Source of the DNA: Escherichia phage vB_EcoS_L-h 1M
Sequence record: NC_073086.1
Reading direction: 5' to 3' (one strand)
Length of the DNA stretch: 45,204 nucleotides
The translations under genes and the position numbers were made by a program. Every line of letters starts with the position of its first letter. Within the stretch, counting starts at the first letter, position 1. Positions 2,035-41,238 of this stretch are shown here, piece by piece. Under the pieces are notes generated by a model. It was given only the letters and a program-made list of their open reading frames with translations. It was not told where the DNA came from and made no database searches.

Positions 2035-4326
2035 TTATTTCCTGTACCTGTACATAATGTCGCCTTCCGCGGCAAGCGGGAAGCCTTTCGCCCAAATAGG
2101 CAGGTCGCACATCAGCGCGCATAGCTCCTCGGTCGTGTAATCGTCAGTATCCGGCACTTCGGTGATCAGTTCATCGTGTACGGACAGTACGATCTCATAT
2201 CCCGCAGCTTCAACGCCCGGCATGGACCATGCGAGGATATCGCGACACAGCGCCTGCACGATGTTTTCCGTGAGTTTTCCGCCGTAGGTGTACTGGGATC
2301 CCCACTGGCGCGTCGTCTGATTCTCACCCTGATATTTAATGCGGGTGCTGGTGCGTTTCTTGCCGGTATCTTCGTCGATCTCGGTCGTCACTGACAGCGC
2401 AATGCCTGGATAACTCATAATACGCCCCGACGGCAACTCAATTTTCAACCACCACCCCGCGGCGTTCGGGTCGTCGCGTTCCTCGTCGAAGGTTGGGTCA
2501 TGCTTCGCCTTCGTGCGGACTATCTTGAGCGCTTTCTTACCATCCGGGCGAACGTTCGCGCCAGCCCAGTACGCTTTGCCAGGATTGCGGATTGCACACA
2601 ACACCGCGTCCTCAAGCTCGGCCCAAAAGGCTACCGTCTTCGGGTGAGCCTCGCGCCACATGCGTTTAATCGCATCACACGTAAGCCATACGTTTTTCGG
2701 CAGTATGTAAGTCGGGCGCTCGTCCTTCTTGCCCGGCTTCGGCGGTCGCTTCGCTTCGTTAATGCGGGCATATTCATAACCACGTTTCGCCGCCGCCCAA
2801 ATGTGATCGGGGAATGTGCCCTTCATCACGTCAGCCATCGCATAAAGGTCGAGGCCCAGGTTTTTAGCGAACTGCAAGAACGCAGCCACGCCGCCGCCGT
2901 AGCCCAGGCCCAACTCACACGCCTTACCAATCTGGCGTAAGTCCTTGCGGTTGGCTTTAATGTATTCCGGGTCAAGGCCAAACATCTTACCGGCAGTTTC
3001 ACAATAAATATCGCGACCGGCCCTAAACACCATGAGCGCTGTTTTCTCGCCAGCGATCCAGGCAAGGCCGCGCCCTTCCACGTTGGAGTAGTCCGCAACG
3101 ACAAACTTCTTGCCCTTCGCCGGAATAATGCACCCGCGAACGGTCGAGGCCGTTAGCTTCGATATGTCATACGCCCAGTGTGCGGTCCCGCGTAACAGGG
3201 AGTTGATGCCGTTGGTGAGCATGTGCGACCGCACCCAAAAAGATATATCGCTCTCGCCCTCGCGGCGCTTAATCTTCCCTTCGTGGTCGTCGCTATACTC
3301 GCCACGCGCCAGGTTTTGCGGCTGGAAGCCTTTACCGGCCCAGCGTAGCGTGCGCTTTGCCCCACCATACTGAAGACAACCACGGCGGCGACCATCGGCG
3401 GACAGGCCATTTACGAGCGGATTGTACTTAGTCGATGCCGTTGATGACGCTCCGAGGCGCATCTCGATAAGCACTTTGCCTTCATCGGGGAAGTCTGGAT
3501 CTTCCAGCAGGTCGTTAAGCGTGGATTTCTGCGCGTTGTGGATTGTGAACGCAGGCGCGAGGTCACGCAGCGCTGGCAGGAAGTCATTGCCGGTCAGCTT
3601 ACCGCCGAAGCGCTCCCATGCTTCTTCCTTCAATTCTTCCTTATGCGCCTGTACCGCTTTGATCGCAGCGCGCGCCAGGTCGACGTCTACATAGAAGCCG
3701 CGGTCATTAATCAACTGGTCAATAAGCAGGATTTCGTCTTCCTTCGGCGTGTTACCCCAGTCCGGTATGCGCCAATAGACTTCACGCATCGCGACAATAT
3801 CCAGCGCAGCATAGCGCAGGAATTTAGCCCACTCCTCTGGGTGCGTCTCGCGCGTGTAGCGTCGGATTTTGTAGGTCCTAGGGGTAGGCTTACAGAATCG
3901 TTTAATCAGCGCCTTGCCTGCCTTATCCTTCGCGTGCTCTGCATCAACGCCCAGCACCTGGCACTGCATATCGAGGCTACCAGGCAACGCGTGTCGGAAG
4001 GCCATAACCATGGTGTCTTCGATCTGGCACACTGGCAAGTCAATACCCCACTTTTCGCGAATAACCAGGCGGTCAAACAGGAGGCCGTTAGCCATCACGA
4101 TTTTTGCTTTCTTGCGGGATACCTGGCGGAGCGCCTTGCGCAGTTCACGCGGCATTGTAGGGGATTCGGTGCAATCCCATGTCTGTACGCGGCCCTCGTC
4201 GATGGCGTAGGTGCAGATCATAATCTCGGTTGTCGGGTGCTCCGCGTAGGCGTATGCGCCCACTTTCTTCAGGTCTACCCCGCTAAATGTCTCGGTATCG
4301 AGAAACAGGCGTTCGAAGTCTTTCAT
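2035..4326 (-). CDS. family A DNA polymerase (Pol I-like) with 3'-5' exonuclease domain
   Basis: 763 aa; exo motif 'LDTETFSG'; pol motif A 'ADYSNVEGR', motif B 'RKDLRQIGKACELGLGYGGG', motif C 'VHDELI'. Confidence 0.9.
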   Translation of the reverse strand: MKDFERLFLDTETFSGVDLKKVGAYAYAEHPTTEIMICTYAIDEGRVQTWDCTESPTMPRELRKALRQVSRKKAKIVMANGLLFDRLVIREKWGIDLPVCQIEDTMVMAFRHALPGSLDMQCQVLGVDAEHAKDKAGKALIKRFCKPTPRTYKIRRYTRETHPEEWAKFLRYAALDIVAMREVYWRIPDWGNTPKEDEILLIDQLINDRGFYVDVDLARAAIKAVQAHKEELKEEAWERFGGKLTGNDFLPALRDLAPAFTIHNAQKSTLNDLLEDPDFPDEGKVLIEMRLGASSTASTKYNPLVNGLSADGRRRGCLQYGGAKRTLRWAGKGFQPQNLARGEYSDDHEGKIKRREGESDISFWVRSHMLTNGINSLLRGTAHWAYDISKLTASTVRGCIIPAKGKKFVVADYSNVEGRGLAWIAGEKTALMVFRAGRDIYCETAGKMFGLDPEYIKANRKDLRQIGKACELGLGYGGGVAAFLQFAKNLGLDLYAMADVMKGTFPDHIWAAAKRGYEYARINEAKRPPKPGKKDERPTYILPKNVWLTCDAIKRMWREAHPKTVAFWAELEDAVLCAIRNPGKAYWAGANVRPDGKKALKIVRTKAKHDPTFDEERDDPNAAGWWLKIELPSGRIMSYPGIALSVTTEIDEDTGKKRTSTRIKYQGENQTTRQWGSQYTYGGKLTENIVQALCRDILAWSMPGVEAAGYEIVLSVHDELITEVPDTDDYTTEELCALMCDLPIWAKGFPLAAEGDIMYRYRK

Positions 4327-4493
4327 TGCTTTATCCTCACTACGGCGTCAGCGCTGCCGATCATGGAGAAGATGCCGTCTGACAGGGCGATCTCTTCGCC
4401 ATTGTTGCGAATCTCTGCAACTGTAAAATATTCACCCAGTACCTTGGGCCATACCTGCATTCCGACTTTCACTTCGCTGGCTTTAATACGCAT
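4323..4493 (-). CDS. small hypothetical protein, translationally coupled to polymerase
   Basis: 56-aa C-terminal part of ORF 4323..4901; ATG 4491-4493 (rc) with AGGA RBS; stop overlaps pol start. Confidence 0.35.
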   Translation of the reverse strand: MRIKASEVKVGMQVWPKVLGEYFTVAEIRNNGEEIALSDGIFSMIGSADAVVRIKQ

Positions 4494-4506
4494 TTTTCGT
4501 TGTCCT

Positions 4507-4532
4507 ATTAAAAAGCCCGCATTAAGCGGGCT
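4507..4532 (-). terminator. rho-independent terminator
   Basis: stem AGCCCGC / GCGGGCT, loop ATTAA, T-tract on minus strand; after SSB-like gene. Confidence 0.55.
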
Positions 4533-4551
4533 TGAATAGTGGGCTTTGCCC

Positions 4552-5337
4552 TTAACGGCGGCGACGTTTACGTGGTGCTTCGTCTTCGTCGTCTTCGTCC
4601 TCATCTTCGTCATCGCGTGGCTTACGACGTTTACGAGGTTTCTCATCTTCGTCGTCTTCGTCGTCATCGCGGCGCTTGGACTTTTTGGACTTGCGCGGCT
4701 TGTCGTCCTCATCATCGTCATCACGACGTTTTGACTTCTTAGCCTTGCGCGGGCTTTCGTCTTCGTCGTCGTTGTCCAGGTCTTCGTCGGAACATGAAGA
4801 CCCGCCACCTCCGAAGGCTTCGCCGTCTTCACGGAATCGCAGACCCAGCAAGCCCGCCCCGAGTCCCTTGCCGTTGGTATTGTTCCACGCCCAAATATCA
4901 AGTGACACGTTGCAATAACAACCGGAGTAGATCTCCTGGCCTTCGATCTCGTCGCCTTCTACGGTCAGACCTTGTTCAGTCTGCTTCTCGCCGAGTGACG
5001 TTTGAATGATAGGCTGTTTGAACGATTTGGCGTTGATATACAACATGCCTTCGAATTCTTCGGTAACTTCATCGCGCTCGTCGCCGTCGCGAACTGCACA
5101 TTCCTTAGAATCCTGGGCGTAGTGGCGGTCCATCCACTTATCGGCATTCTTCTCAGATTTCAGCTTGTCGGTGAGCACTGCACGCGCTGCCGCTTCCACT
5201 TTGTCCACCTGCGGATCTTCTTTATCAAGAAGAATCACGGCACGGTATGCCGGTTTTTGTCCATCCTGTTTAGGGGTATCACGTTCCCAAATTTTCAGGA
5301 AGCATACGCGCACATTTTTCAGGTTGACTTTAGCCAT
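4552..5337 (-). CDS. ssDNA-binding-like protein (DUF2815-type) with alternating acidic/basic C-terminal repeats
   Basis: N-terminus 'MAKVNLKNVRVCF'; start ATG 5335-5337 (rc) with GAGGA RBS; C-terminal (D/E)n-PRK-(K/R)n repeated 4x. Confidence 0.55.
   Translation of the reverse strand: MAKVNLKNVRVCFLKIWERDTPKQDGQKPAYRAVILLDKEDPQVDKVEAAARAVLTDKLKSEKNADKWMDRHYAQDSKECAVRDGDERDEVTEEFEGMLYINAKSFKQPIIQTSLGEKQTEQGLTVEGDEIEGQEIYSGCYCNVSLDIWAWNNTNGKGLGAGLLGLRFREDGEAFGGGGSSCSDEDLDNDDEDESPRKAKKSKRRDDDDEDDKPRKSKKSKRRDDDEDDEDEKPRKRRKPRDDEDEDEDDEDEAPRKRRRR
4560..4800. repeat. degenerate ~60-bp tandem repeats encoding charged tail of SSB-like protein
   Basis: repeated CGTCTTCGTCnTCATC...GCGnGGCTT units; protein level acidic block + PRK + basic block x4. 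Confidence 0.45.
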
Positions 5338-5427
5338 TTTCCAATTCCTCATTTTCACATGTATCGGGGTTATTGTGAGCCACCCCGTCCGGCTTGGTTG
5401 CTAATCTACTTGGTTGCGCCTGAGNGG

Positions 5428-5670
5428 TCAAGCGTTTTTATTAAAAAGATTTCGTGTCACGTAGTTGGTGGCGTTCTCGATCCAGCTTAACGGCGGGCGG
5501 TCGATGTTCTTCGCGATCCACGCCACGGCATGGTCGCTGTAACCATCGTCCAGCCATTGGGTTGGATGACGAATCATCCAGGCCACCATTAAGACGCCTT
5601 GCACGCAATGCAGGATAAAGCCCAGCGCGCCGAGCAAAAACATCAATAAGATTGCGAATACTTTATTCAT
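5428..5670 (-). CDS. small membrane protein
   Basis: 80 aa, N-terminal hydrophobic helix 'VFAILLMFLLGALGFILHCV'; AGGA RBS. Confidence 0.4.
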   Translation of the reverse strand: MNKVFAILLMFLLGALGFILHCVQGVLMVAWMIRHPTQWLDDGYSDHAVAWIAKNIDRPPLSWIENATNYVTRNLFNKNA

Positions 5671-7093
5671 TGCTTAAGTCCTCGTCAGTAGCTACAGACC
5701 ACGCAGGGCGCGGGTCGTCGATGGGTGCTAATACCGGTTTAGCGGGTGCGCGCGTGATTTTATCACACAACTTTGCCCACACTTTCGGCTTCTCGTCCTT
5801 CAATACCTTCTCGGCATCAGTAGGGCTGAGTAATGTTTCTTTGTACATCACGTCGCGCTTGATCCGGGCCTTCGTGAAGATCTCAATCACTTCGCTCTCG
5901 TCCGCCCACTTGCGGATTCCTTCCTTACCGGCAACCATCTTGAGGCCCAGCGATTCGCCATCACCCGCCATTACGGCCTTGAACACCGCGGACTCGATAG
6001 CCTTGATGTGCTGGCGCATTGCGTCAAGACCTTCATAAGCCTTGCGNAGTTCCNCCNCGCNCANAGCGCNGGGGGNCGCTTNTTTNTTNCCCCNCTTCNC
6101 NCGNNGNGCCGCTTTGNGGGCTTNGNGGGCCATATTGNGGTCGTGATTGGCGCATTCTTCCTCTGTCGAAATACTCACGTCGTCGCCCAGGTCTTCGTCT
6201 GTTGCCGTTGGTGGGGCCATAGTGTCGATTGCAGCCTTAGCGCGGGCGCTACACTGATCCGCAAATCTGCACCATTGACACGCATCAACGCTCGGTCGGA
6301 AGTCGGCACGGGTGAGTCCCTTTTTGCCGCGGTCGTACGCTTCCAGGGCGGCGATAGCACGCTTGGACGCAAACTTCGCGAATATCTCCAGGGCTTCTAC
6401 CGAAATATCCCACTCCGACGCCCCGCCGCAATACGGCTGGAAGATAACCAGGCGCACGGTCGTAATGTCGTACATAGTTTTCAGCTTGCGCAGCAGGCCC
6501 AGCGCATACAACATAAGCTGTTTGTTTTCTTTCGCCTCGACCTTATGCCGCCCCGTCTTCAGGTCGCCAACAATCAGCATGTACGTGCCGTCGGTCTTCT
6601 TCATGACCATGACCATATCCGCAGTGCCGAACGTCTTAACCCGGTTGCCGTCGATCTCGAAGCCAGAGTGTAGGACGCGGGTAAGATCGGCGCGCATCTC
6701 AAGCTGAACAAACTCCGCCACTTCGAGGAGCGGTCGCCAGTGGTCGATGTATGCGTCGCACTGTTTCACCATGTCGTCGTTGACCAGCACGCCGCCTTTC
6801 GGTGCTTTCGGGTGCGCCTTCACCGGCCCCTTACCTTCGTTCTCGACGTAACACCCTTTGTACGTCTTCGCGGTTATCAGCTTTTCACCGGCGATAATGC
6901 GGTTGAGCACGACTTCAGATACAGTGTGCATACTCGTACCGTTAATCGCCGCTTGCCCGGATTCGTTCGGGATACCTTGTTCTACCACCAGGGCGGCTGG
7001 GCAACCCATCCATTTTTTAGCACCGGATGGGCCGAGTAATGAATGCTCCGTGTTGCTACCGGATTGCGTTTTACGTTTTGGTTTAATCGCCAT
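5663..7093 (-). CDS. PD-(D/E)XK Cas4-like exonuclease (DUF2800-type)
   Basis: 'GTADMVMV...GDLKTGRH' nuclease motifs, C-terminal Cys cluster 'CQWCRFADQC'; N-run 6047-6130 inside. Confidence 0.6.
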   Translation of the reverse strand: MAIKPKRKTQSGSNTEHSLLGPSGAKKWMGCPAALVVEQGIPNESGQAAINGTSMHTVSEVVLNRIIAGEKLITAKTYKGCYVENEGKGPVKAHPKAPKGGVLVNDDMVKQCDAYIDHWRPLLEVAEFVQLEMRADLTRVLHSGFEIDGNRVKTFGTADMVMVMKKTDGTYMLIVGDLKTGRHKVEAKENKQLMLYALGLLRKLKTMYDITTVRLVIFQPYCGGASEWDISVEALEIFAKFASKRAIAALEAYDRGKKGLTRADFRPSVDACQWCRFADQCSARAKAAIDTMAPPTATDEDLGDDVSISTEEECANHDXNMAXXAXKAXXXXKXXXKXAXPXAXXXXEXRKAYEGLDAMRQHIKAIESAVFKAVMAGDGESLGLKMVAGKEGIRKWADESEVIEIFTKARIKRDVMYKETLLSPTDAEKVLKDEKPKVWAKLCDKITRAPAKPVLAPIDDPRPAWSVATDEDLSNE

Positions 7094-8221: not shown

Positions 8222-8446
8222 GGTGTATCTCCGATTGGTTAAGTTTAGGTGTCGACCATTAACTTCGTCGGTGGCCTTAACATAGTGCCCGGTTGCGCGT
8301 TCTCCCTTTCGGGTAGTGGACCGGGTTATATAATCACGGTTGGGAATCCTGACACTTCGATCCGGCCCCTGCGTTGCCCCTCTCCAGTTTGCTTCCTGCA
8401 TCCTGTCGACGAGGTGAATGATAGATTGGTTGCAGATGGGTGTCAA

Positions 8447-13535: not shown

Positions 13536-13826
13536 ATGGATAAGATAAACGAGTGGCTATTTGCCATCGCATGTCTGGCTGGCGGCTTCGTAGGCGCACG
13601 CATTCATGGCGAGGCTACGAAAGGGCCGCTAAACTTCGTTTTATATATCGTGGTCGGCTTCCTGTGCGCCATATTTGGTGCGCCNNCTATCGCCGAGTGG
13701 GCTGGCTTATCTGGCGAGCGCACTGTCGCCGGTTTGGGCTTCGTAACTGCAATCTTCTGGATGCCAATAGCCGCCCGGATCAGGGAGACTATTGAGTCGT
13801 TCCGACTTCCGGGGGGCGCAAAATGA
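13536..13826 (+). CDS. holin-like membrane protein
   Basis: 96 aa with 2-3 predicted TM helices, immediately upstream of endolysin. Confidence 0.5.
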   Translation: MDKINEWLFAIACLAGGFVGARIHGEATKGPLNFVLYIVVGFLCAIFGAXXIAEWAGLSGERTVAGLGFVTAIFWMPIAARIRETIESFRLPGGAK

Positions 13827-14068
13827 TTATCTCCGTCCTGTTGTTTGTTATCATAGGGGCTTCGTCCCTGTTTAACGTGTATGCGCCGTCCGTCCAGGAT
13901 GGCATTTTAGGCCGGGTGTTATATCTGCTAACGGCGATGATCTGCGTTATCGGATTGTTGCAAACGGGAGACGTATCAGACACCACCTGGACCGCGTTAA
14001 TCTGGCTGTTTGCATTGCGCACGCTGCGTAATGCTGTTTTGAATGGGGTAAAACATGCGATTCAGTGA
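13823..14068 (+). CDS. membrane protein (holin/antiholin-like)
   Basis: 81 aa, hydrophobic helices, overlaps start of endolysin gene. Confidence 0.45.
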   Translation: MIISVLLFVIIGASSLFNVYAPSVQDGILGRVLYLLTAMICVIGLLQTGDVSDTTWTALIWLFALRTLRNAVLNGVKHAIQ

Positions 14069-14546
14069 CAACGGTCTACGATTTACGGCAGCATGGGAGA
14101 CGTTCAGCCCGATGCCGTATTTCGCGACTAAGAAAGAGCAGGCCCGCGGCCTGTACACCTGGGGTTATGGTCACACCGGAACTAACCCGCCTCGAAGCAT
14201 TACCCGCGCGGAAGCGCTGGAGCTACTCAAGCGTGACGTGGCGTATGCTGAGAACTGGGTGAACAAGTACGCACATCCGAGCATCAACCAGGCGCAATTC
14301 GACGCGCTGGTGGACCTGGTAATCAATGCGGGTCAGGGTCCGATCGTACCGGACCATATCGCTAATGACTTCGATGATGCAGTGCGACTGGGCGACTGGG
14401 CGAAGGTCCGTGCTACTCTGCCGCAGTTCCGCAAGCAAGGCGGGGAAGTGCTTAAGGGTCTGGTCCGTCGAGCAATCGGCAGACAAGCGCTATTCGATGG
14501 TAAGCAGTGGGACGTTGCCGAGAAGATCGGACGTAACGCAGCATAA
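14055..14546 (+). CDS. endolysin, lysozyme (GH24, P22 gp19/T4 lysozyme type)
   Basis: 'SDNGLRFTAAWE...GLYTWGYGHTG...INQAQFDALVDLVINAG' matches lysozyme catalytic region. Confidence 0.7.
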   Translation: MRFSDNGLRFTAAWETFSPMPYFATKKEQARGLYTWGYGHTGTNPPRSITRAEALELLKRDVAYAENWVNKYAHPSINQAQFDALVDLVINAGQGPIVPDHIANDFDDAVRLGDWAKVRATLPQFRKQGGEVLKGLVRRAIGRQALFDGKQWDVAEKIGRNAA

Positions 14547-14562
14547 TACGGGGTAACACAGT

Positions 14563-14964
14563 ATGTTAGATTCGATCTTGCGACGTAAAGAACGCATTAT
14601 CAAGACACTGCCCGCAGTGCAGAACCCAGAAGCGCGCCGCATCCTGGCGGGCGATATGAATATTTCAGGAGTCTTTGACAAGGCGGTGCCTGAAGGGACG
14701 CCGGTGGCGAGCGCTACCGTTACCATCACGCCAGCTACCGCCGCAGTTGGTGAGACAGCCGCCGCGACTGTTGCCATCCTGCCATCCGGCGCTACCAACA
14801 AGGCCGGGTCGTGGGTGTCTGCTAACCCTAACCGCGCCTCAATCAATCCGACTACCGGCGAAATCACCGCGAAAGCTGCGGGTAACGTCCGCATCGTTTG
14901 GGTGGCGTCAGACGGTAGCGGGGTGCAGGCTGACGCAGGCTTCACAGTAACGGCAGCAGAGTAA
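14563..14964 (+). CDS. Ig-like (Big_2-type) domain protein
   Basis: C-terminal 'ATVTITPATAAVGETAAATVAILPSGATNK...VRIVWVASDGSGVQADAGFTVTA' resembles bacterial Ig-like domain; terminator downstream. Confidence 0.45.
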   Translation: MLDSILRRKERIIKTLPAVQNPEARRILAGDMNISGVFDKAVPEGTPVASATVTITPATAAVGETAAATVAILPSGATNKAGSWVSANPNRASINPTTGEITAKAAGNVRIVWVASDGSGVQADAGFTVTAAE

Positions 14965-26876: not shown

Positions 26877-26967
26877 TTTGGCGCAATTCTATGCGTGCGG
26901 TATCATTAATCCGTATATCTAAACAGGAGCGTTCATTATGGGTCGCTTAAGTAGCGAGGGGTCTTAT

Positions 26968-26992
26968 GGGGCCAGCACGGCCCCTTTTTTAT
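26968..26992 (+). terminator. rho-independent terminator between tail tube candidate and chaperone
   Basis: stem GGGGCC / GGCCCC, loop AGCAC, then T6-7. Confidence 0.6.
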
Positions 26993-27006
26993 TGGAGAAT
27001 ACCACA

Positions 27007-27683
27007 ATGGCTAAAGCACCACTCTTCACACTTGACCCTAAGCCAACCTTTAAGCTGCCGATTGAGATCCCGCGCCCTGGTGAGAACGAACCCGGCAANA
27101 TGACTTTTACCGTCCGCCACCGCCCGATCGACGAGTTTTCGCAGACCATGCAGGACACTGAACGAAAGCTATCGGAATATGACGACAATGACCCGGACGG
27201 CTTTAACGTTATGGTCGAGGCCATCATGCACGTCGCAGAAGGCTGGAATCTGCCGGACGAATTTAACGCGGAGAACGTCCGCCGCCTGGTGGTCAACTAT
27301 CCACGCGCGTTCGGTGTGTTCCACACGTCGTACTATCTCGAACTGATGGGGTTGNGNGAAAAAAACNAATTGAGGNGGCGCGNCGCTTTTNTGGCCCNCC
27401 NCCNCCCTCCGAAGATTGACCCGCAAGTTTATGGGGTGCGGCCCCCGAAGATGTTTGTCCGCCTGTTGCACTATGGCCCGACAACGCGAAGATACTCGCA
27501 GTCTTCACAGATTGCTCCACGCAATGGCGCACCGGATTTGGTGGCGCATACGGCATCGACTACGGCGTGCTGGAGTGGTTATTTAAGATGCACGGTATCG
27601 AAAACGAGCAGCGCGCGTTTAAAGATATCAAGCCGATGGAACGAATCGCGCTTGATGAGATGACGCAGCAGAACCCAGCATAG
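27007..27683 (+). CDS. tail assembly chaperone with C-terminal domain in -1 frame (G/GT-like)
   Basis: N-domain in frame of ATG 27007; slippery heptamer A_AAA_AAC 27360-27366; protein-like C-domain in -1 frame 27420-27683; N-run 27355-27411 between. Confidence 0.5.
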
Positions 27684-27687
27684 TGAA

Positions 27688-28000
27688 GCGGGACAGGCGT
27701 GGCGTCCCGTTTTGTCCCGCCTCTGCAAAACTATGTACCTACTCAATTCCACTGCATTAACTCAAAACGGGACAGGCGGGACGTCCCCCTTTGTCCCGCC
27801 CCTCAAAAGTGAATGGCTATGCGGTTTTTCTGCATTAAACAAACGGGACAGAAAGCGGGACAGAATGAGGCGGGACAAAGCGGGACAGCACCCCTGTCCC
27901 AGTCAGTGCTGCCGCTGGTTTTTGCCGATCGGGACAGGCGGGACAAAGCCCAGTCTTTCANACNANACGGGGGNCAACGGCCCCCCTCGTCTGAGACTGA
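27688..28000 (+). repeat. composite element copy B: expanded GCGGGACA array plus the same stem-loop
   Basis: at least 10 direct and 5 inverted GGGAC units; shares exact 31-mer with copy A; hairpin has N calls. Confidence 0.7.
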
Positions 28001-28067
28001 ATAAGGTTTGTTTTAAAATCGCTGATACAATATCCATCGGCAACTGCATAAAAAAGGGGACTGCATT

Positions 28068-28409
28068 ATGGCAGATCAAGCGGCAGGCATCATGATGAAG
28101 GCTGATGTTGCACAAATCAGAACGGCAAATACTGTGCTGGACTCCTTCGCACAGAAATCCGAGAACACAGAAAACAAGATGAAGAAATTAAACGACACCC
28201 TCGGCAAATCCAAAAAGGTGACGAGTGACGCCGCGGGCGGAATGGAGAAGCTCGCGACTGAATCGCAGCGCGCAGCCGATGGCATGACAAAACAGGAGCG
28301 ACTTGCCAACAGGTTAGGCATGTCGACCAAAAACCTGGGCTTTGCCTCGCGTAACGCCGCATTCCAGTTACAGGATATCGCAGTTACGCTTGAGATGGGG
28401 ATGCCTTGA
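28068..28409 (+). pseudogene. tape measure N-terminal duplicate copy ending in in-frame TGA
   Basis: 113 codons, ~90% identical to 28794 onward; TGA at 28407-28409 where copy 2 has GTG; same frame as downstream ORF. Confidence 0.4.
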
Positions 28410-29519
28410 CACCGCGTCATGCTTCAGCAGTTACCGCAGCTAACTGGGGCGTTCGGCGGACTGGGTAACACGCTGCGTTTTGTTGCGGGCTTCCTCGGCC
28501 CAGTAGGGGTCGGCCTTGCCGCCGTAACGGCAACGTTAGGCGTGGGCGTGGCAATTACGTCCCNCNNGGAGAACNANANCCCCCCGCTTAACAAGACGCT
28601 GGCACTTTCCGGTAACATTTCCGGCCTGACGGCAAACCAGATCCTGGTGCTATCTGAGAACGCCGAGCGCATGGGCGGGTCGTTCCGCAAGACGCGTGAC
28701 ACAATCCAGGCGCTGGCGGCGGCGGGTGTGAAAGCGGGTGGTGACTTCGGCGCACTGGCGAAAGTGGTGAATGACTTTGCGAAGGTGTCCAGCATGGCAG
28801 ATCAGGCAGCGGGCATCACGCTCAAGGCGGACGTCGCGCAAATTAAAACGGCTAATACTGTGCTGGACACATTCGCGCAGAAATCCGAGAACACAGAACA
28901 GAAAGTAAAGAAATTAAACGACACACTCGGCAAGTCGAAAAAGGTTACTGGCGACGCCGCGGGCGGAATGGAAAAGTTAGCGACTGAATCGCAGCGCGCC
29001 GCCGACGGCATGACGAAACAGGAGCGACTAGCCAGCCGATTAGGCATGTCGACCAAAAACCTGGGATTTGCTTCACGGAACGCGGCATTCCAGTTACAGG
29101 ATATTGCGGTAACGCTTGAGATGGGTATGCCGGTGCACCGCGTCATGCTTCAGCAGTTACCACAGCTAACCGGCGCATTCGGCGGATTAGGTAACACGCT
29201 GCGTTATGTTGCGGGCTTCCTCGGCCCAGTAGGGATCGGACTTGCGGCAGTAACGGCGACATTAGGCGTGGGCGTGGCAATCACGTCACGGGCAGAGAAC
29301 CAGGTAGCCGCGCTTAATAAGACGCTGGCGCTGTCCGGTAATATTTCAGGCCTCACAGCTAACCAGATCCTTGTGCTGTCCGAGAACGCTGAGCGCATGG
29401 GCGGGTCATTTCGCAAGACGCGTGACACAATCCAGGCGCTGGCGGCGGCGGGTGTGAAAGCGGGTGGTGACTTCGGCGCATTGGCTAAGGTAGTTAATGA
29501 CTTTGCGAAGGTGTCCAGC
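28068..29519 (+). repeat. 726-bp in-frame tandem duplication at 5' end of tape measure gene
   Basis: 28068-28793 vs 28794-29519, both begin ATGGCAGATCA; ~90% identical, mostly synonymous. Confidence 0.75.
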
Positions 29520-31436: not shown

Positions 31437-31473
31437 GGCGCGATCGGCGCGGGCCATCACTATTTTCACTACT
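31437..31473 (+). repeat. ~37-bp direct repeat, copy 1 (copy 2 at 32161-32199)
   Basis: GGCGCGATCGGCGCGGG...CACTATTTTCACTACT directly after tape measure stop; second copy inside L-like gene. Confidence 0.5.
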
Positions 31474-33601: not shown

Positions 33602-34209
33602 CAACGTTTAAATTGTACGGCGTCTTGGGGCGTCGATTCGGTAAAGTGCATAAGCTGGACTGCTTCACTCCGGGCGAGGGTATCACCGGCCTGTGTGTGA
33701 AGTTACCCGGCTTACAGGACTTTCTAATGTCGGCCCACCTGGACAATATGATGTTCAAAGTGCGCAAGGGCAACCACACAATGACCGGTTATGATGAGCT
33801 TGGAGAGTTCCACGGCAACCGCGTAGTTACCATCGCTCCGGTTATGACTGGCGCAAAAAGAGGATTGGGCCAATTGCTGGCGGGTGTCGCGATCGTAGTG
33901 GCGTCGTTCTATACGGGCGGACTTGCTACTGCCGCTTTCGGGGCTTCGGCGGCAACCGCTGCCGCTATCGGTACGGCTACATTTTCGTTCGGCATGTCAC
34001 TTGCGCTGGGCGGTGCTATGCAATTGCTGTCCCCACAGCCGAAAGGATTGCAGACACGGCAGGACGTGGATAACAAAGCGTCGTATGCGTTCGGCGGGCC
34101 GGTAAACACGACCGCGCAAGGTACGGCACTTGGTGTATTATGGGGTGAGCGTGAGATCGGCGGCGCTATTATTTCAGCCGGAATCGTAACCGAGGATTTG
34201 AACGAATGA
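33592..34209 (+). CDS. tail assembly protein I-like
   Basis: 205 aa; Gly/Ala-rich hydrophobic C-terminal half; position before J. Confidence 0.6.
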   Translation: MAMTTFKLYGVLGRRFGKVHKLDCFTPGEGITGLCVKLPGLQDFLMSAHLDNMMFKVRKGNHTMTGYDELGEFHGNRVVTIAPVMTGAKRGLGQLLAGVAIVVASFYTGGLATAAFGASAATAAAIGTATFSFGMSLALGGAMQLLSPQPKGLQTRQDVDNKASYAFGGPVNTTAQGTALGVLWGEREIGGAIISAGIVTEDLNE

Positions 34210-37200
34210 CGATTGTCTATGACGTCACAGGCCATAAAGGCGGCGGTGGCAAACAGCACACCCCACAGGAGACACCCGATAGCCTGCATTCGCTGGCTAA
34301 AATCCGCATCTTGCTCGCGCTGGGAGAAGGTGAGTTCGAAGGTATTCCAGACCCTAACGAATTACGGCGGCGCGTATATCTGGACGGAACACCGATCCAG
34401 AATGCAGACCTGTCTGAAAACTTCCCTGGGGCGCGTGTGGAGTTCCGCCCCGGAACACAGCACCAGGATGTGATCCACGGATTTTCAGCGGTGGAAAGTG
34501 AGCAATCTGTCGGTGTAAAACTGGAAAACGGTACGCCGTGGGTGCGCCAGATTAACGATACCAGTCTGGACGCCGTGCGCATTCGTATCGGTAATCCGGC
34601 CCTGTACACTAACGAAGATAATGGCGACCTGGTGGGTGGGCGCATCGACTATAAGTTCGTTGTGTATACGGATAACGCCGACCCGCGTGAGTTTACCTTC
34701 GCTGCCGTTGGTAAAACAATGTCTCTATACGAGCGCGATCACCGCATCGAGCTACCGCCGAACGTTAACACCGGCTGGCGCGTGGAGGTGCACCGCATAA
34801 CGGCGAACTCCACATCGGCAAAAGTGGATAACGATATCCAGGTGCATTCTATTACTGAGATTATCGACGCCCGTCTTCGCTACCCGCTAACCGCGCTGTT
34901 GTTCGTGGAGTTCGACGCTAAAGCGTTCCAGAACATCCCGCGCGTGTCCATCAAGTGCAAAGGCCGCAAAGTTCTAATACCGAACAACTATGACCCGATT
35001 AATCATACCTATTCGGGGGACTGGGACGGCACGTTTAAACGCGCATGGACGGATAACCCTGCGTGGCACTGGTACGATATTTGTATTACGGAACGCTTCG
35101 GCCTCGGTCGCCGGATCAAACCGCAAATGCTGAACCGGTACGCGCTCTACCAGATTGCGCAGCGCTGCGATCAACTGGTCAGCGACGGCAACGGTGGTCG
35201 AGAAATCCGCTTTAAGAATGATATGTACATTCAGTCACAGACGGATGCCTGGACCGTGCTTAAGGATTTGGCTGCCATCTTCGCCGGAATGACCTGGTGG
35301 GGTAACCAGATGTTGAATATCGTCAGTGACCAACCGGTAGCCGCGGTGTCACACACTATCACCAACGCATCTGTTATTGATGGGCGATTCGACTACGCAT
35401 CTGGAAGCCAGAAAACGCGGTATTCCACTTTCGCGGTAGCCTACGGCAACCCGAAAAACCACTATGATGATGCCATCGCAACGGGCCAACGTGTCGAACT
35501 GGTACGCCGCCATAAGATTAACCGTCTTGATATCACGGCGATCGGCTGTACGCGCGAGTCAGAAGCGCAACGCCGGGGGCACTGGGCGCTAATATCCAAC
35601 CAGCTTGACCAGCAGGTCAGCTTCAAGGTTGGCATGGAAGGTCTATTCTTTATTCCGGGTAGCGTAGTCGCGATCGCAGATACTAATATTTCTGGCGGAT
35701 TCGAGACTCGCGGCGGTCGCCTGTTGTCAGACCCTGGCACGCGTACCGTGCTTAACACAGACAGCGAAATCACATTCCGCCCTGGTGATAAGTTCCTGGT
35801 ACGCACCGATAGCGGAAATGTGGAGACTCGCGAGATCGCCAGCGTCAACGGCAACAAGGTCACTCTAAAAACCGCACTGGATGCCGACCCGATTCCAGAC
35901 CAACCGTTTTGCGTTGATGGCGATGATATCCAGTTGCAGAAATTCCGCATCACCGATCTGGAATATGACGACTCTACCAGCACTTTCTCGGTGCGCGGGA
36001 TTGAATACAACGATAGCAAGTATGATGCCGTTGATAATGGCGCTCGCCTTGATCCTGGTATCTTCACGCAAGTGCCTGATGGTGTAATGAAGGGGCCGGA
36101 ATCCGTGACCATCACCACGTCGCAGATTTCATCGCAAGGACAGCTAATCACCAACGTGGATATTGTTTTCCCGCCGGTGAAAGATGCCGTGGTGTATGAA
36201 ATCCAGTGGAGGCGTACTAGCCTGCAGAATATGGCGATCCAGTGGGGTAACGACTGGGTGAATATCCCACGCACGGCGTCGAATGGGGCACACATCCCTA
36301 ACGTGTTCTCCGGTAACTATCAGGCACGCGTCCGCGCAATTGGCATGGGCGAGATATCATCCCCGTGGGTGTCTTCCGCGATCACGCCGGTGGAAGGTCG
36401 CCTCGGCGGGCTTAACGCACCAATCATCACCAGCGCGATTTCGGGTCTGCATCAAATTCTATGGAAGTGGAACCACAACAACGCCGCTACGGATATCTCA
36501 TACACCGAGCTTGAAGTGCGCAAGACGGGTGAGGCAGAATGGAAATTCTTAACAAACGTCCCATACCCTGGCGCGGAGTATGCGCAAACGTCGCTGGAGT
36601 TCGGAATTTACCAGCAGTTGCGCGCCCGTGTAGCGGATAAAATCGGCAACCTGTCGGACTGGTCGGCCCCGTTTGAAGGGCAGGTGAGCGACAAAGTTGA
36701 CGAGTACATGAAGGGGCTTGATGACGAGTTCTTGACTTCCGAGGATGGTAAACACTTCCAGGAAGCAATCGACACCATTCCTCAAGGCATTTATGAGTCT
36801 ATGCTAACGGACGCACAGCAATTGATTAACGCCCGCTCCGAGTATCAAGGGATTTATGCGGAAATCAAGGTGGCGTATAACGTTGCCACGGACGCCCACA
36901 AGGCAGTAGCGCAACTGGAAACGTTGATCGGCACACGACTTGATGATGCGGAGGCGTCAATCCACACGTTGCAGACAGCGCAAAGCACGCACGAACAAGC
37001 GTTCGCCCAGTACCAACAAACTGTCGCCGCTAAGTTTGGGGAACAGGAAGCCGCCATCCAGCAGGTACAAACGGCAACGGCAGACGTAGCTGGCGCACTG
37101 GCGGAGTACAAGACCCAGGTCGCGGCACAGTTCGGTCAGCAGTCTGCCGCTATCGAGCAGAAGATGACGTCTTCGTTTAACCATGCTGGTGGCAGCGCCA

Positions 37201-37652
37201 CATATAGCCTTAAGGCTGGCGTGACGTATAACGGGGCTTACTACGATGCCGGTATGCAGCTTTCAGTTGTTGCGGAAGGTGGCGCGGTTAAATCCCGCAT
37301 CGCGTTCAAGGCGGACCAGTTCTACATCATGCACCCATCTAATGGGTCGCTTTCGTCCGCGTTTATCGTTGACGGCGGTCAGGTGTACATTGACACCGCA
37401 CGCATCAAGAACGCGTCTATCAACTTCGCGCAGATCACGGACACGCTGCAGTCGAATAACTGGAATCCAGGCAACAGTGGCTGGCGTATCGCGAAGGATG
37501 GCGGGGCGGAGTTCAACAACGTAACGGTACGAGGCAACTTGTTCGCTACTACTGGTAACTTCGGATTCTCTGGAGGGTCGGTACAGATCGACGCCACCGG
37601 CATTAACGTGCCATTGCCTGGCGGGGGTAGGGTGAAAGTGGGGACGTGGTAA
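34206..37652 (+). CDS. tail tip / host specificity protein J-like
   Basis: 1148 aa; N-term 'KGGGGKQHTPQETPDSL' and 'YSGDWDGTFKRAWTDNPAWHWYD...RCDQLVSDGNGG' parallel lambda J. Confidence 0.85.
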   Translation: MTIVYDVTGHKGGGGKQHTPQETPDSLHSLAKIRILLALGEGEFEGIPDPNELRRRVYLDGTPIQNADLSENFPGARVEFRPGTQHQDVIHGFSAVESEQSVGVKLENGTPWVRQINDTSLDAVRIRIGNPALYTNEDNGDLVGGRIDYKFVVYTDNADPREFTFAAVGKTMSLYERDHRIELPPNVNTGWRVEVHRITANSTSAKVDNDIQVHSITEIIDARLRYPLTALLFVEFDAKAFQNIPRVSIKCKGRKVLIPNNYDPINHTYSGDWDGTFKRAWTDNPAWHWYDICITERFGLGRRIKPQMLNRYALYQIAQRCDQLVSDGNGGREIRFKNDMYIQSQTDAWTVLKDLAAIFAGMTWWGNQMLNIVSDQPVAAVSHTITNASVIDGRFDYASGSQKTRYSTFAVAYGNPKNHYDDAIATGQRVELVRRHKINRLDITAIGCTRESEAQRRGHWALISNQLDQQVSFKVGMEGLFFIPGSVVAIADTNISGGFETRGGRLLSDPGTRTVLNTDSEITFRPGDKFLVRTDSGNVETREIASVNGNKVTLKTALDADPIPDQPFCVDGDDIQLQKFRITDLEYDDSTSTFSVRGIEYNDSKYDAVDNGARLDPGIFTQVPDGVMKGPESVTITTSQISSQGQLITNVDIVFPPVKDAVVYEIQWRRTSLQNMAIQWGNDWVNIPRTASNGAHIPNVFSGNYQARVRAIGMGEISSPWVSSAITPVEGRLGGLNAPIITSAISGLHQILWKWNHNNAATDISYTELEVRKTGEAEWKFLTNVPYPGAEYAQTSLEFGIYQQLRARVADKIGNLSDWSAPFEGQVSDKVDEYMKGLDDEFLTSEDGKHFQEAIDTIPQGIYESMLTDAQQLINARSEYQGIYAEIKVAYNVATDAHKAVAQLETLIGTRLDDAEASIHTLQTAQSTHEQAFAQYQQTVAAKFGEQEAAIQQVQTATADVAGALAEYKTQVAAQFGQQSAAIEQKMTSSFNHAGGSATYSLKAGVTYNGAYYDAGMQLSVVAEGGAVKSRIAFKADQFYIMHPSNGSLSSAFIVDGGQVYIDTARIKNASINFAQITDTLQSNNWNPGNSGWRIAKDGGAEFNNVTVRGNLFATTGNFGFSGGSVQIDATGINVPLPGGGRVKVGTW

Positions 37653-37678
37653 CCGCCATCCCCGTTACGTTGTACTGA
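37653..37678. repeat. 26-bp exact direct repeat, copy 1 (copy 2 at 38379-38404)
   Basis: CCGCCATCCCCGTTACGTTGTACTGA between J stop and RBP-like stop; identical copy inside RBP-like gene. Confidence 0.7.
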
Positions 37679-38653
37679 TTAATAGATGTTAGGAATTACG
37701 AGTAACGGGGTGGGTACTGCAATGTTTTTACCCGGCATTTGGAATTGCTGCCGTGAATAGTTGCCGATTACCCGGTTTTTGGCGATGCGCACATTACCGC
37801 CTGCCATTCGAATCCCGTTCATTCGAACGTGATTGTAGCCGCCGTTGTTCTCAATGAGCGCGCCGGTATACGAAAGCTGGACCAGGCTATTGCCTATGTA
37901 CTGATCGCCGCCGCCGATATAGATAAGGCGGTCATAAACAAATGGCTTATTCACTGTTGAGAACGTGACCTGACCCTGGTTGTTTGTCATGGTGATGCCG
38001 TTTCCGGGGGTGGGTGGCGTATTGTTGAATATAACCAGGTCCATTTCAACGGCAGCGCCTACGTCGTCAATCCCACCATAGGACGCATTACGGACGATAA
38101 TACTTCCGCCATCGAAGCCGACCGACACGTTTCCGTCGTCCCAGCGCGCGAATGGGACACCGCCTACAGGTAACGGCATACTTCCGTTCACCCACACGCG
38201 CTGCGCATATTGGCAGGTCATTAGCCTGGATACATTTGATATGGCGGTAAAGTCCGTCGAGTTCGCCACCAGTAACCCTGCGTTGCGCGAACCCACCGGC
38301 AACACTTCCATGATCACCCCGCCCCATGTTGGAAGCCCGCTATATGCGCCATATGCGTCTTCACCTCGCAAGGTGATTCCGCCATCCCCGTTACGTTGTA
38401 CTGAGGTGACGTAGAAAGGGTCGGGCAAGACCAGTGTCTGGTCGAATACTTCTATAACTTCAACGGGGCTTGTGAGCGCGACGACCAGATCTGACCCTGG
38501 CGTTAGCTGAGTGTTAATAGTAAGCGTCTTATCAGACTGGCAGCGCTGATAGAATGAGGTACAGAATGACGGAGCGCGAAGTCCGGCTGTTATCTCCATC
38601 ACCGGCCTTCCGTCGTTGTAGTCTATAAGTATTCCAGCGCCCATGATTACCAC
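37679..38653 (-). CDS. putative receptor-binding / tail-tip protein
   Basis: 324 aa, G/N/T/S-rich; co-oriented downstream of Cor-like lipoprotein gene, antisense to J and fiber. Confidence 0.35.
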   Translation of the reverse strand: MVIMGAGILIDYNDGRPVMEITAGLRAPSFCTSFYQRCQSDKTLTINTQLTPGSDLVVALTSPVEVIEVFDQTLVLPDPFYVTSVQRNGDGGITLRGEDAYGAYSGLPTWGGVIMEVLPVGSRNAGLLVANSTDFTAISNVSRLMTCQYAQRVWVNGSMPLPVGGVPFARWDDGNVSVGFDGGSIIVRNASYGGIDDVGAAVEMDLVIFNNTPPTPGNGITMTNNQGQVTFSTVNKPFVYDRLIYIGGGDQYIGNSLVQLSYTGALIENNGGYNHVRMNGIRMAGGNVRIAKNRVIGNYSRQQFQMPGKNIAVPTPLLVIPNIY

Positions 38654-38868
38654 TCCCGAGATTTAACTGATACCGTACCAGAGAAGTTGCCGTCACTATC
38701 CGCGGACAGGCCGGTGAAGCGCATGTCGACCTCCCCGGCAGGGACTTTTTGCCCGTCAACGTAGCGCAACATGCAGCTTCCGTAAGCTACCGTAATGCAA
38801 TCGCCGTTGTTACGCTCTACCGCGCAGCCGGACAGAAGAACCGCACAAATCACAATTAATGTTTTCAT
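38647..38868 (-). CDS. Cor/Llp-like superinfection-exclusion lipoprotein (putative)
   Basis: 73 aa; signal peptide with lipobox 'AVLLSGC'; located beside tail fiber/RBP genes. Confidence 0.5.
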   Translation of the reverse strand: MKTLIVICAVLLSGCAVERNNGDCITVAYGSCMLRYVDGQKVPAGEVDMRFTGLSADSDGNFSGTVSVKSREW

Positions 38869-38948
38869 AGACAGACACCGGCGTTATTCGCGATGAGGCC
38901 AATGCCGCGAAGGCTGAAGCGCAAGCCGCCAGCACTGCCGCGCTTGGA
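38869..38948 (+). repeat. 80-bp direct repeat, copy 1 (copy 2 at 39595-39674, 1 mismatch)
   Basis: fills the whole intergenic gap between lipoprotein and fiber start codons; duplicates an internal fiber segment. Confidence 0.75.
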
Positions 38949-40589
38949 ATGGCAGCGGGTACACTATCCGTAACGAATAACAGCAAGGCGGTTGTCGGGG
39001 TAGGCACGACGTTTACCACGTTTACCGCTGGCGACTTCTTAACTCTGGTGGTGGGGCAAGTGCCTTACACTGTTGCTATCGCGTCCGTCGAAAGCGACAC
39101 CGCGATTACGCTTGTGCTTCCGTTCGACGGCCCCACGGCAACCGGCCTCGCGTGGGATGGCGTTAAGCGCGATACCATGTCGCTGGCAACGATGGGCGTA
39201 ACAGTACAGGCACAGAAAGCGTTGCGCTTGATGATCGCTGACGAAAACAACTGGCGTGCAATCTTCGGAGACGAAGAAGAAGTCACGGTAACGCTGCCGA
39301 ACGGGCAAGTTATGCAAGGTATGTCCTGGGGCTACCTGTCACAATTGATGAATCAGATCGACCCCGTTGAAATGCGCAACCTGCAACAACAAGCCGCGGC
39401 ATCTGAAGCAGCAGCGCAAGGATTTCGCAATGAGGCCGAAGGCTTCAAGACTGAGACGGCGGGGATCCGCGACGCCACCAACCAGATTAAGGCGGATACG
39501 CAGGCTATCCACGACGCCACCAATACCATCAAGACGCAGACGGCCCAGATTAAGACTGACACGCAGGCCATCAAGGGCCAGACGGACCAGATTAAGACAG
39601 ACACCGGCGTTATTCGCGATGAGGCCAATGCCGGGAAGGCTGAAGCGCAAGCCGCCAGCACTGCCGCGCTTGGATATCGGAACGAGGCCGAACAATTCAA
39701 GAATGAGATTGACCCGTCTAACTTTCTGGCAAAGGGTGGCAACCTGGCTGGGTTAACTGACTTGCCCGAGTCGCGGGATAACTTGGGTTTAGGAGCGTTG
39801 GCGACTAAAGATTCGGCGGCGCTAAACTCCACAGATACGACCGGTATTCTGCCCATAGATAAGCGCGGTTTAGGCGCTGGTACCATCCCTGGCGCACGGG
39901 AGACGATGCATATTTATGGTCATGACGCTACGTTCGGGACCATAAATAATATCCTCACATACTTCAACAATATTGCGGGTAACGGCCGACTCTTCTCGTT
40001 TCGAGATGGTGCCGTTGACGCCACGAACACCTACAAATTCGGCTCAGCAATACTGTTTCGCACAGCCGACACCTACGGACTGTTAAGTGTTGACCACAAC
40101 AGCGGAAACGTTAGAGCATCCGGTGGTACAGTTTCTGGTGGGATCGCGGCCACAGCATACATCAACAACCTGTGGGGTACGCGTAACACCACCGTAGACG
40201 GTAACGGGTTTATTAAAACCGCGTCGCCCATCGTCAAGATCTTCAGTGACGGTGCCGCGGAGACTAACGACGAGGCCGAAGGCGTTACGCTGACTCGCAT
40301 ATCTGCGGGGGTGTATGTTGTGGAGGGGTGTCTAGGCCTCAACTCAGACCCATCCTGGGGCGGGCCTGACGGCGGGATTGAGATTCCGACGGACGTGAAC
40401 AAGCAGCCTCGTTTATGGGTTGATTATAAAGTGCGCGCTGACGGCTCTGTGGAGGTACGCACATACCACCGAACACACCCACACGCTCCAGCATTCGCAA
40501 GAAATGAGATAGAAGGTGTGGCGGAAGGGGACCCGGTTGATATACCGCGTGGCACGTTCATATCTGTTCGGGTTAATATGCCTGAGTAA
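38949..40589 (+). CDS. side tail fiber protein
   Basis: 546 aa; fiber-like N-terminus; repeats 'FRNEAEGFKTETAGIRDATNQIKADTQAI...'. Confidence 0.7.
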   Translation: MAAGTLSVTNNSKAVVGVGTTFTTFTAGDFLTLVVGQVPYTVAIASVESDTAITLVLPFDGPTATGLAWDGVKRDTMSLATMGVTVQAQKALRLMIADENNWRAIFGDEEEVTVTLPNGQVMQGMSWGYLSQLMNQIDPVEMRNLQQQAAASEAAAQGFRNEAEGFKTETAGIRDATNQIKADTQAIHDATNTIKTQTAQIKTDTQAIKGQTDQIKTDTGVIRDEANAGKAEAQAASTAALGYRNEAEQFKNEIDPSNFLAKGGNLAGLTDLPESRDNLGLGALATKDSAALNSTDTTGILPIDKRGLGAGTIPGARETMHIYGHDATFGTINNILTYFNNIAGNGRLFSFRDGAVDATNTYKFGSAILFRTADTYGLLSVDHNSGNVRASGGTVSGGIAATAYINNLWGTRNTTVDGNGFIKTASPIVKIFSDGAAETNDEAEGVTLTRISAGVYVVEGCLGLNSDPSWGGPDGGIEIPTDVNKQPRLWVDYKVRADGSVEVRTYHRTHPHAPAFARNEIEGVAEGDPVDIPRGTFISVRVNMPE

Positions 40590-40621
40590 CTTCGCCGGTG
40601 AGCACGACCATAGGCTGGACG

Positions 40622-41197: not shown

Positions 41198-41238
41198 GTT
41201 GCATCCCTCATTGATGCGGGCCGAAGCCCGCGATTAAA

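Follow-up and report, generated by a model that had tools for sequence, protein, structure and literature searches.

In small siphoviruses, receptor-binding loci with cognate exclusion proteins have been proposed to lie directly downstream of gpJ, and in 2021 one such locus type was linked to LptD (BASEL; PMC8594841). Locus type has been reported to track receptor use across phage families (BASEL, PMC8594841; 2026 preprint), receptor-specific J C-termini are reported by the 2026 preprint, and phage Bas84 has been assigned to LptD from the structure of its locus. For phage Oekolampad, cryo-EM in 2025 placed the receptor-binding protein (RBPOeko) in the open state of LptDE, with a bond between Gln299 of RBPOeko and Ser350 of LptD, and the LptD changes D352Y and Y671N as well as changes in loop EL11 abolished both RBPOeko binding and Oekolampad infection (PMC12685063). 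The same report places Rtp45 at the periplasmic side of LptDE, where it forces loop EL4 outward by as much as 20 Å, a displacement that leaves the receptor-binding protein unable to bind. Those authors did not succeed in expressing the Oekolampad-type lipoprotein and regarded lipoprotein structure predictions as unreliable, and no in vivo exclusion assay for this lipoprotein was found in the available part of the paper (PMC12685063).

The locus considered here lies in a stretch of 45,204 nucleotides from Escherichia phage vB_EcoS_L-h 1M (NC_073086.1), referred to below as the window. It is co-linear at every base with the Dhillonvirus vB_EcoS_011D5 (011D5 below; MT478993.1, 45,204 bp), with which both coding sequences of the module are identical. 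Two minus-strand genes, one for a small lipoprotein (38647-38868) and one for a 321-aa protein (37679-38644), are inserted antisense between J (34206-37652, plus strand) and the side-fibre gene (38949-40589, plus strand), an arrangement already recognised in an earlier note on this DNA. Given Pfam matches with E-values of 5.5e-120 for the longer product and 5.4e-22 for the shorter, both open reading frames are real genes rather than chance ones. The pair very probably constitutes the terminal-receptor module of an LptD-dependent Dhillonvirus, composed of an LptD-binding protein and an exclusion lipoprotein, and nothing was found in the sequence that contradicts this reading. The earlier proposal of a receptor-recognition plus exclusion module is supported by the close identity of both products to their Oekolampad counterparts and by homology to Rtp45, as detailed below. 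That idea was right but is not new, since such a receptor-binding and exclusion pair has already been described; the biology itself was proposed in 2021 and resolved structurally in 2025 for an 88%-identical protein.

As an open reading frame, the second minus-strand gene covers 37679-38653 and would encode 324 aa if initiated at GTG, according to the open reading frame list and the sequence. The ATG at 38644 is almost certainly the real start, because a GGAG is found 8 nt upstream, the TAA of the lipoprotein gene stands 2 nt before it, and the GenBank annotation and all homologues use the same ATG. The co-oriented frame of 324 aa noted earlier exists, although its product is better taken as a protein of 321 aa and 34.4 kDa. 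At the junction of the two genes (38642-38660, minus strand), as read from the sequence, the order is GGAG, 8 nt and ATG, and the 2-nt spacing between TAA and ATG suggests that the lipoprotein and receptor-binding genes are co-transcribed and makes translational coupling between them possible.

The 321-aa protein belongs to the LptD-binding DUF6453 family (PF20051), with a score of 400.5 bits (cut-off 25) and residues 4-297 spanning profile positions 1-290 of 291. Searched against all PDB chains, it matched chain C of 9RPT (E 2.9e-187) over residues 1-321 of both sequences. Global alignment gave 87.9% identity to RBPOeko (282/321), while identity to Rtp44 was 34%. The 39 substitutions relative to RBPOeko are distributed over residues 1-110 (17), 139-161 (7) and 196-287 (14), with one at 320, and Gln299 falls within a substitution-free stretch. 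The Bas84 receptor-binding protein is 96.6% identical to the 321-aa protein. The richness in G, N, S and T remarked upon earlier is true but modest, since these residues make up 33.0% of the protein compared with 18-23% in replication and packaging enzymes and 26-33% in other tail proteins of the same genome.

The family of the 321-aa protein carries the PHROG 1265 label 'membrane protein; moron', and its gene runs opposite to the tail operon, as might be expected of a non-virion membrane or accessory protein in a phage whose J acts as the receptor-binding protein, as in lambda. In LamB-, TolC- and NupG-type relatives it is indeed J that carries specificity (BASEL, PMC8594841; 2026 preprint). 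Such a role is very unlikely for the protein studied here. The 321-aa sequence was found to have neither a transmembrane segment (maximum 19-residue Kyte-Doolittle average 1.27) nor a signal peptide, and a near-identical protein, once purified, attaches to LptDE from the extracellular side, with LptD point mutations abolishing both binding and infection (PMC12685063). Locus type, moreover, follows receptor use across families. A DNA search of 5,426 complete E. coli genomes recovered the allele from none of them, the single match being a short one of 116 nt, and this near-absence argues against a lysogenic-conversion gene. Both PHROG labels, 'membrane protein' and 'moron', were rejected on the lack of a transmembrane segment and on the one short match among the E. 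coli genomes.

The upstream gene encodes a precursor of 73 aa, which starts MKTLIVICAVLLSGCAVERNN in the open reading frame list and the minus-strand sequence. Its N-terminus, MKTLIVICAVLLSGCA, is a classical lipoprotein signal peptide, in which a short basic segment is followed by a hydrophobic core (Kyte-Doolittle average 2.87) and an L-S-G-C lipobox with the cysteine at position 15 and alanine at +2, the cleavage context being MKTLIVICAVLLSG before C-A. The earlier identification of a 73-aa lipoprotein with the lipobox LLSGC is thus borne out. The signal peptide (aa 1-14) is encoded at 38827-38868 and the cysteine predicted to be lipid-modified, Cys15, at 38824-38826, both on the minus strand, and the mature lipoprotein has 59 aa and a mass of about 6.35 kDa. 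A +2 residue other than Asp leads to outer-membrane sorting of a lipoprotein; a signal peptide with a lipobox cysteine and a non-Asp +2 residue are both present in the 73-aa protein.

The precursor matched the Pfam family PF24052 (Phage_lipoprotein) with 78 bits (cut-off 27), and the mature residues 15-73 alone still scored 64.9 bits against the same cut-off (E 6.5e-18). In the PDB it was aligned with 9rps_D, which is Rtp45 (E 5.8e-9), with both disulfide cysteines in register. Cys24 and Cys32 of the lipoprotein correspond, at equal spacing, to the Cys30/Cys38 disulfide pair of Rtp45 and are kept in all four LptD-type sequences compared (4/4). The hairpin motif VPAGEVD is likewise present in all four, Oekolampad differing by a single E-to-D change. 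With 95.9% identity to Oekolampad bas18_0026 and 42.6% to Rtp45, the lipoprotein is, as judged by homology, a member of the Rtp45 family (PF24052) and a homologue of Rtp45.

Rz1-type spanins are small outer-membrane lipoproteins as well, and the resemblance raises the question of whether this product acts in lysis, as an outer-membrane spanin, instead of in exclusion. The chance of this is close to nil, as the gene is located far from the lysis cassette at 13536-14964, its product falls in the LptDE-binding Rtp45 family, and it is swapped along with the receptor-binding gene.

A further possibility, implied by the Cor/Llp analogy of the earlier note, is that the lipoprotein is a Cor- or Llp-type FhuA blocker and that the phage uses FhuA. 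A weak match to PHROG 1119 (Cor; E 5e-4, residues 1-30) was obtained, and FhuA-type Dhillonviruses do have a Cor gene in the corresponding position, which shares the promoter region and signal peptide. The match to Cor, however, is confined to residues that are mainly signal peptide and is gone when the mature part is searched alone, whereas bob_15 of the FhuA-type phage bob, used as a control, matched PHROG 1119 over its full length (E 4.7e-28). The mature lipoprotein matched only phrog_4281 and PF24052, the LptDE-binding Rtp45 was the only meaningful PDB match, and the neighbouring gene is of the LptD-type and not the FhuA-type receptor-binding class. An FhuA blocker is therefore extremely improbable, and Cor-family membership was rejected because homology across the mature protein was absent in the PHROG search. 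What stands of the comparison with Cor and Llp is the likeness in function and genomic position, but not membership of either family, and FhuA as the target gives way to LptD/LptDE.

The comparison with bob also indicates how such modules may be exchanged. In this FhuA-type sibling, the same slot is filled by two genes co-oriented with J, followed by the antisense Cor-family gene. Between 011D5 and bob, the DNA is ~90-100% identical up to ~37440, drops to about 45% (the random level) over ~37470-38820 and returns to ~90% beyond. In J, identity to bob per 50-aa block is 76-100% (mostly 96-100%) up to about residue 1085 and then drops to 26%. At the other edge, MKTLI(V/M)ICAVLLSGCA serves as the signal peptide in both exclusion proteins, whose genes also have the 80-bp upstream region in common; past the signal peptide the two proteins are unrelated. 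This loss and recovery of identity delimits a swapped cassette of about 1.36 kb (~37461-38820), which comprises the tip of J, the terminator, the gene for the receptor-binding protein and the mature part of the lipoprotein.

The J tip, i.e. the last ~63 codons (residues about 1086-1148; 37461-37652, plus strand), co-varies with the type of receptor-binding protein, both within the genus and across genera. A J tail motif is common to the LptD-type phages Oekolampad and TheodorHerzl and to Rtp, which belongs to another family, and such sharing is consistent with the presumed role of the J tip as the site at which the receptor-binding protein docks. The boundary of the cassette at the base level, from J codon ~1086 to just past the signal-peptide cleavage site of the lipoprotein, is a small addition to what has been described and could guide receptor-swap engineering in Dhillonviruses.

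If the pair is an LptD module, the 321-aa receptor-binding protein would sit at the end of the central tail fibre, bound there, presumably without a covalent link, by the last ~63 residues of J, and would insert into the extracellular side of open LptDE, resulting in irreversible adsorption. The 73-aa product would be exported and lipidated at Cys15, and its Ala at +2 would direct it to the inner leaflet of the outer membrane, where the roughly 6-kDa mature lipoprotein would bind the periplasmic side of LptDE. Its hairpin, pushed up the lumen of LptDE, would displace extracellular loop 4 so that the receptor-binding protein could not dock. The blocking of LptD would spare the infected cell, and probably released progeny too, from unproductive adsorption. 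Both genes are envisaged as forming a single antisense unit that has a promoter region of its own and shares its terminator with J. The similarity in sequence suggests that this allele acts like the Oekolampad and Rtp proteins, and exclusion of phages in vivo by the Oekolampad-type lipoprotein may be expected by analogy.

It was also considered whether the 39 substitutions relative to RBPOeko shift the LptD variants or resistance mutants that are recognised, and whether the lipoprotein mainly stops self-trapping and not incoming phages. This variant is rather unlikely; according to it, the lipoprotein, expressed from one transcript together with the receptor-binding protein, could keep new receptor-binding protein and progeny off the LptD of the dying cell. 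For the preferred reading, an LptD-binding protein paired with an exclusion lipoprotein, sequence alone predicts the essential LptD as the terminal receptor, and lptD loop-4 and loop-11 mutants should resist, which is of practical use.

The window itself looks like a computational reconstruction and not a natural genome. It contains 78 scattered N. Over positions 1-26900 it differs from MT478993 by SNPs only, with codon periodicity, while 26944-28793 follows MT478993 at an offset of +726 nt with 81-100% identity, as does every non-coding stretch on to ~41199. The other +726 stretches (31437-31473, 32859, 37653-37678, 38645, 38869-38948, 40590-40621 and 41198-41199) are likewise 81-100% identical to MT478993. 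It was observed that 726 nt is the exact length of the major tail protein gene, and that the open reading frame at 26938-27663 has the start and stop of that gene with downstream sequence as its interior, N-containing codons replacing the in-frame stops. Eight isolated differences from MT478993 were also seen in J (34594, 34828 and 34847) and the side fibre (39634, 39855, 39864, 39987 and 40290). Almost all of them are on codon positions 1 or 2 and all are amino-acid-changing, which is atypical of natural divergence, and they are probably part of the reconstruction artefact.

The spacers that flank the module are affected in the same way. The 26-nt convergent spacer between J and the receptor-binding gene (37653-37678) is, in the window, an exact copy of 38379-38404, and the 80-nt spacer that separates the divergent lipoprotein and side-fibre genes (38869-38948) is a copy of 39595-39674, matching MT478993 at offset +726 with 100% identity. 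Since both spacers are copies from 726 nt downstream, the window lacks the terminator and promoter region of the module, and regulatory signals were judged on related genomes. The 26-nt exact direct repeat was considered as a recombination scar and rejected, as it lies in an overwritten stretch and is absent from MT478993.

Between the convergent stops, the native sequence has a hairpin, GGGGCC-N4-GGCCCC, with an A-run before it and a T-rich tract after it. Its folding energy is -15.7 kcal/mol (z -3.7) for the minus strand and -21.4 kcal/mol (z -3.3) for the plus strand. The hairpin is kept in four Dhillonviruses and has an analogous counterpart in Rtp. In the related genomes, the 26-nt native spacer thereby carries a bidirectional terminator shared with J. 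The window version of this spacer had no significant fold. When the window and its native relatives were scanned for sigma-70 and terminator consensus sequences, no signal exceeded the level expected from shuffling, and the native terminator was detected only by alignment and folding. The terminator loop of 011D5 is inverted relative to those of Bas84, HK1 and Oekolampad (minus strand ATCC versus GGAT), with the stem unchanged.

The native 80-nt spacer is highly conserved across four Dhillonviruses and the FhuA-type bob, the 76% mean column identity of its alignment being lowered by the overwritten row of the window. No strong promoter was found in it by a sigma-70 consensus scan, and its RNA fold was not significant; in the related genomes this conserved spacer is the putative promoter region of the lipoprotein gene. 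The 9-mer TTGGTTGCA occurs 13 times in the native genome (MT478993) against 0.38 expected, and 11 copies remain in the window (e.g. at 8426, 11645, 11676, 41798, 43702 and 43719). Those copies that were compared with the annotation are intergenic, with one about 55 nt upstream of the lipoprotein ATG (MT478993 38923-38931, minus strand). The 9-mer is probably a phage promoter element or the binding site of a regulator. The native spacer (MT478993 38869-38948) also contains a 9-bp perfect inverted repeat, TTGGTTGAG ... CTCAACCAA, that flanks a putative -10 region and could be an operator or a hairpin; in Bas84 one change in this repeat is compensated on both arms (TCGAG / CTCGA).

Members of the receptor-binding protein family were detected by translated searches in 426 phage records, and members of the lipoprotein family in 336. 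Escherichia, Shigella, Klebsiella, Salmonella and Cronobacter are the hosts given in the matching records, which, to judge from genus names and genome sizes, appear to include Drexlerviridae, Dhillonvirus, phages of Queuovirinae size and 77-kb podoviruses. Among the last, Kuravirus SU10 (NC_027395) encodes a DUF6453 protein, gp019 (E 2.2e-23; region 3689-5690), directly after gp018, which has a Phage_Tail_Tip domain, as does the C-terminus of J. SU10 gp104 is an Rtp45-family lipoprotein (PF24052, E 2.6e-36) encoded among short, mostly uncharacterised genes (2468-2749), and many Gordonclarkvirinae have matches like those of SU10. No link of Kuravirus to LptD was found in the literature searched; judging from these homologues, LptD may be the terminal receptor of Kuravirus-type podoviruses as well. 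One or both genes also have homologues in mEp515 (PP180003, 53.7 kb), which we take from its name to be a lambdoid phage, and in the 115-kb PH444 (PP350014). The records of Campylobacter phages A131 and A134 and of Acinetobacter phage NJ01 contain coliphage-like copies with 57-84% identity, which suggests that their hosts are mislabelled.

Among the systems compared, T5 pb5 (oad) and Llp follow a like logic, in that the central fibre ends in a dedicated receptor-binding protein, which is paired with a small, periplasm-facing outer-membrane lipoprotein that disables the receptor. The T5 receptor differs in being the TonB-dependent transporter FhuA, and llp is presumably transcribed divergently from oad. 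No T5 Llp-like similarity was found in the lipoprotein by searches of Pfam and PHROGs, nor in the PDB, which to E 10 gave only Rtp45 as a meaningful match and in which we assume a structure of Llp to be present. The two also differ in mode of action, Llp working by long-range allostery and Rtp45 by physical displacement of loops (PMC12685063).

The Cor proteins of phi80, N15 and T1 and of FhuA-type Dhillonviruses (e.g. bob_15) occupy the same genomic position, on the antisense strand immediately upstream of the side-fibre gene. The 80 bp upstream of the gene in bob are nearly identical to those here, as is the 16-residue signal peptide with its lipobox. The mature domain of Cor, by contrast, is unrelated and its target is FhuA, and bob_16 and bob_17, taken as FhuA-type receptor-binding genes, are co-oriented with J, unlike the antisense gene of this locus.

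Rtp, a member of the Drexlerviridae, has in rtp44 and rtp45 the same two-gene layout convergent with J and the same two Pfam families. Rtp45 bound to LptDE (PDB 9RPS) shares the cysteine pair and VPAGEVD with the lipoprotein, and the J tail motif is similar. The differences lie in the low identity of the two proteins (only 34% and 43%), the other phage family, a longer signal peptide and a 1-nt overlap of the genes compared with the 2-nt gap here.

Oekolampad (Bas18, Dhillonvirus) bas18_0025 and bas18_0026 agree with the present pair in genus, position and orientation, and structures of the receptor-binding protein have been deposited as PDB 9RPT, 9RPW and 9RQI, the first being the cryo-EM structure on the LptDE lipopolysaccharide translocon. 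J is 95.0% identical, and the native terminator and promoter spacers are alike. Apart from the 39 substitutions in the receptor-binding protein, Oekolampad differs by three in the lipoprotein and by a side fibre that is only 52.6% identical. In Oekolampad, TheodorHerzl and Rtp alike, a forward J is followed by the receptor-binding and lipoprotein genes on the opposite strand, and after this pair comes the side fibre in Oekolampad and TheodorHerzl and other genes in Rtp.
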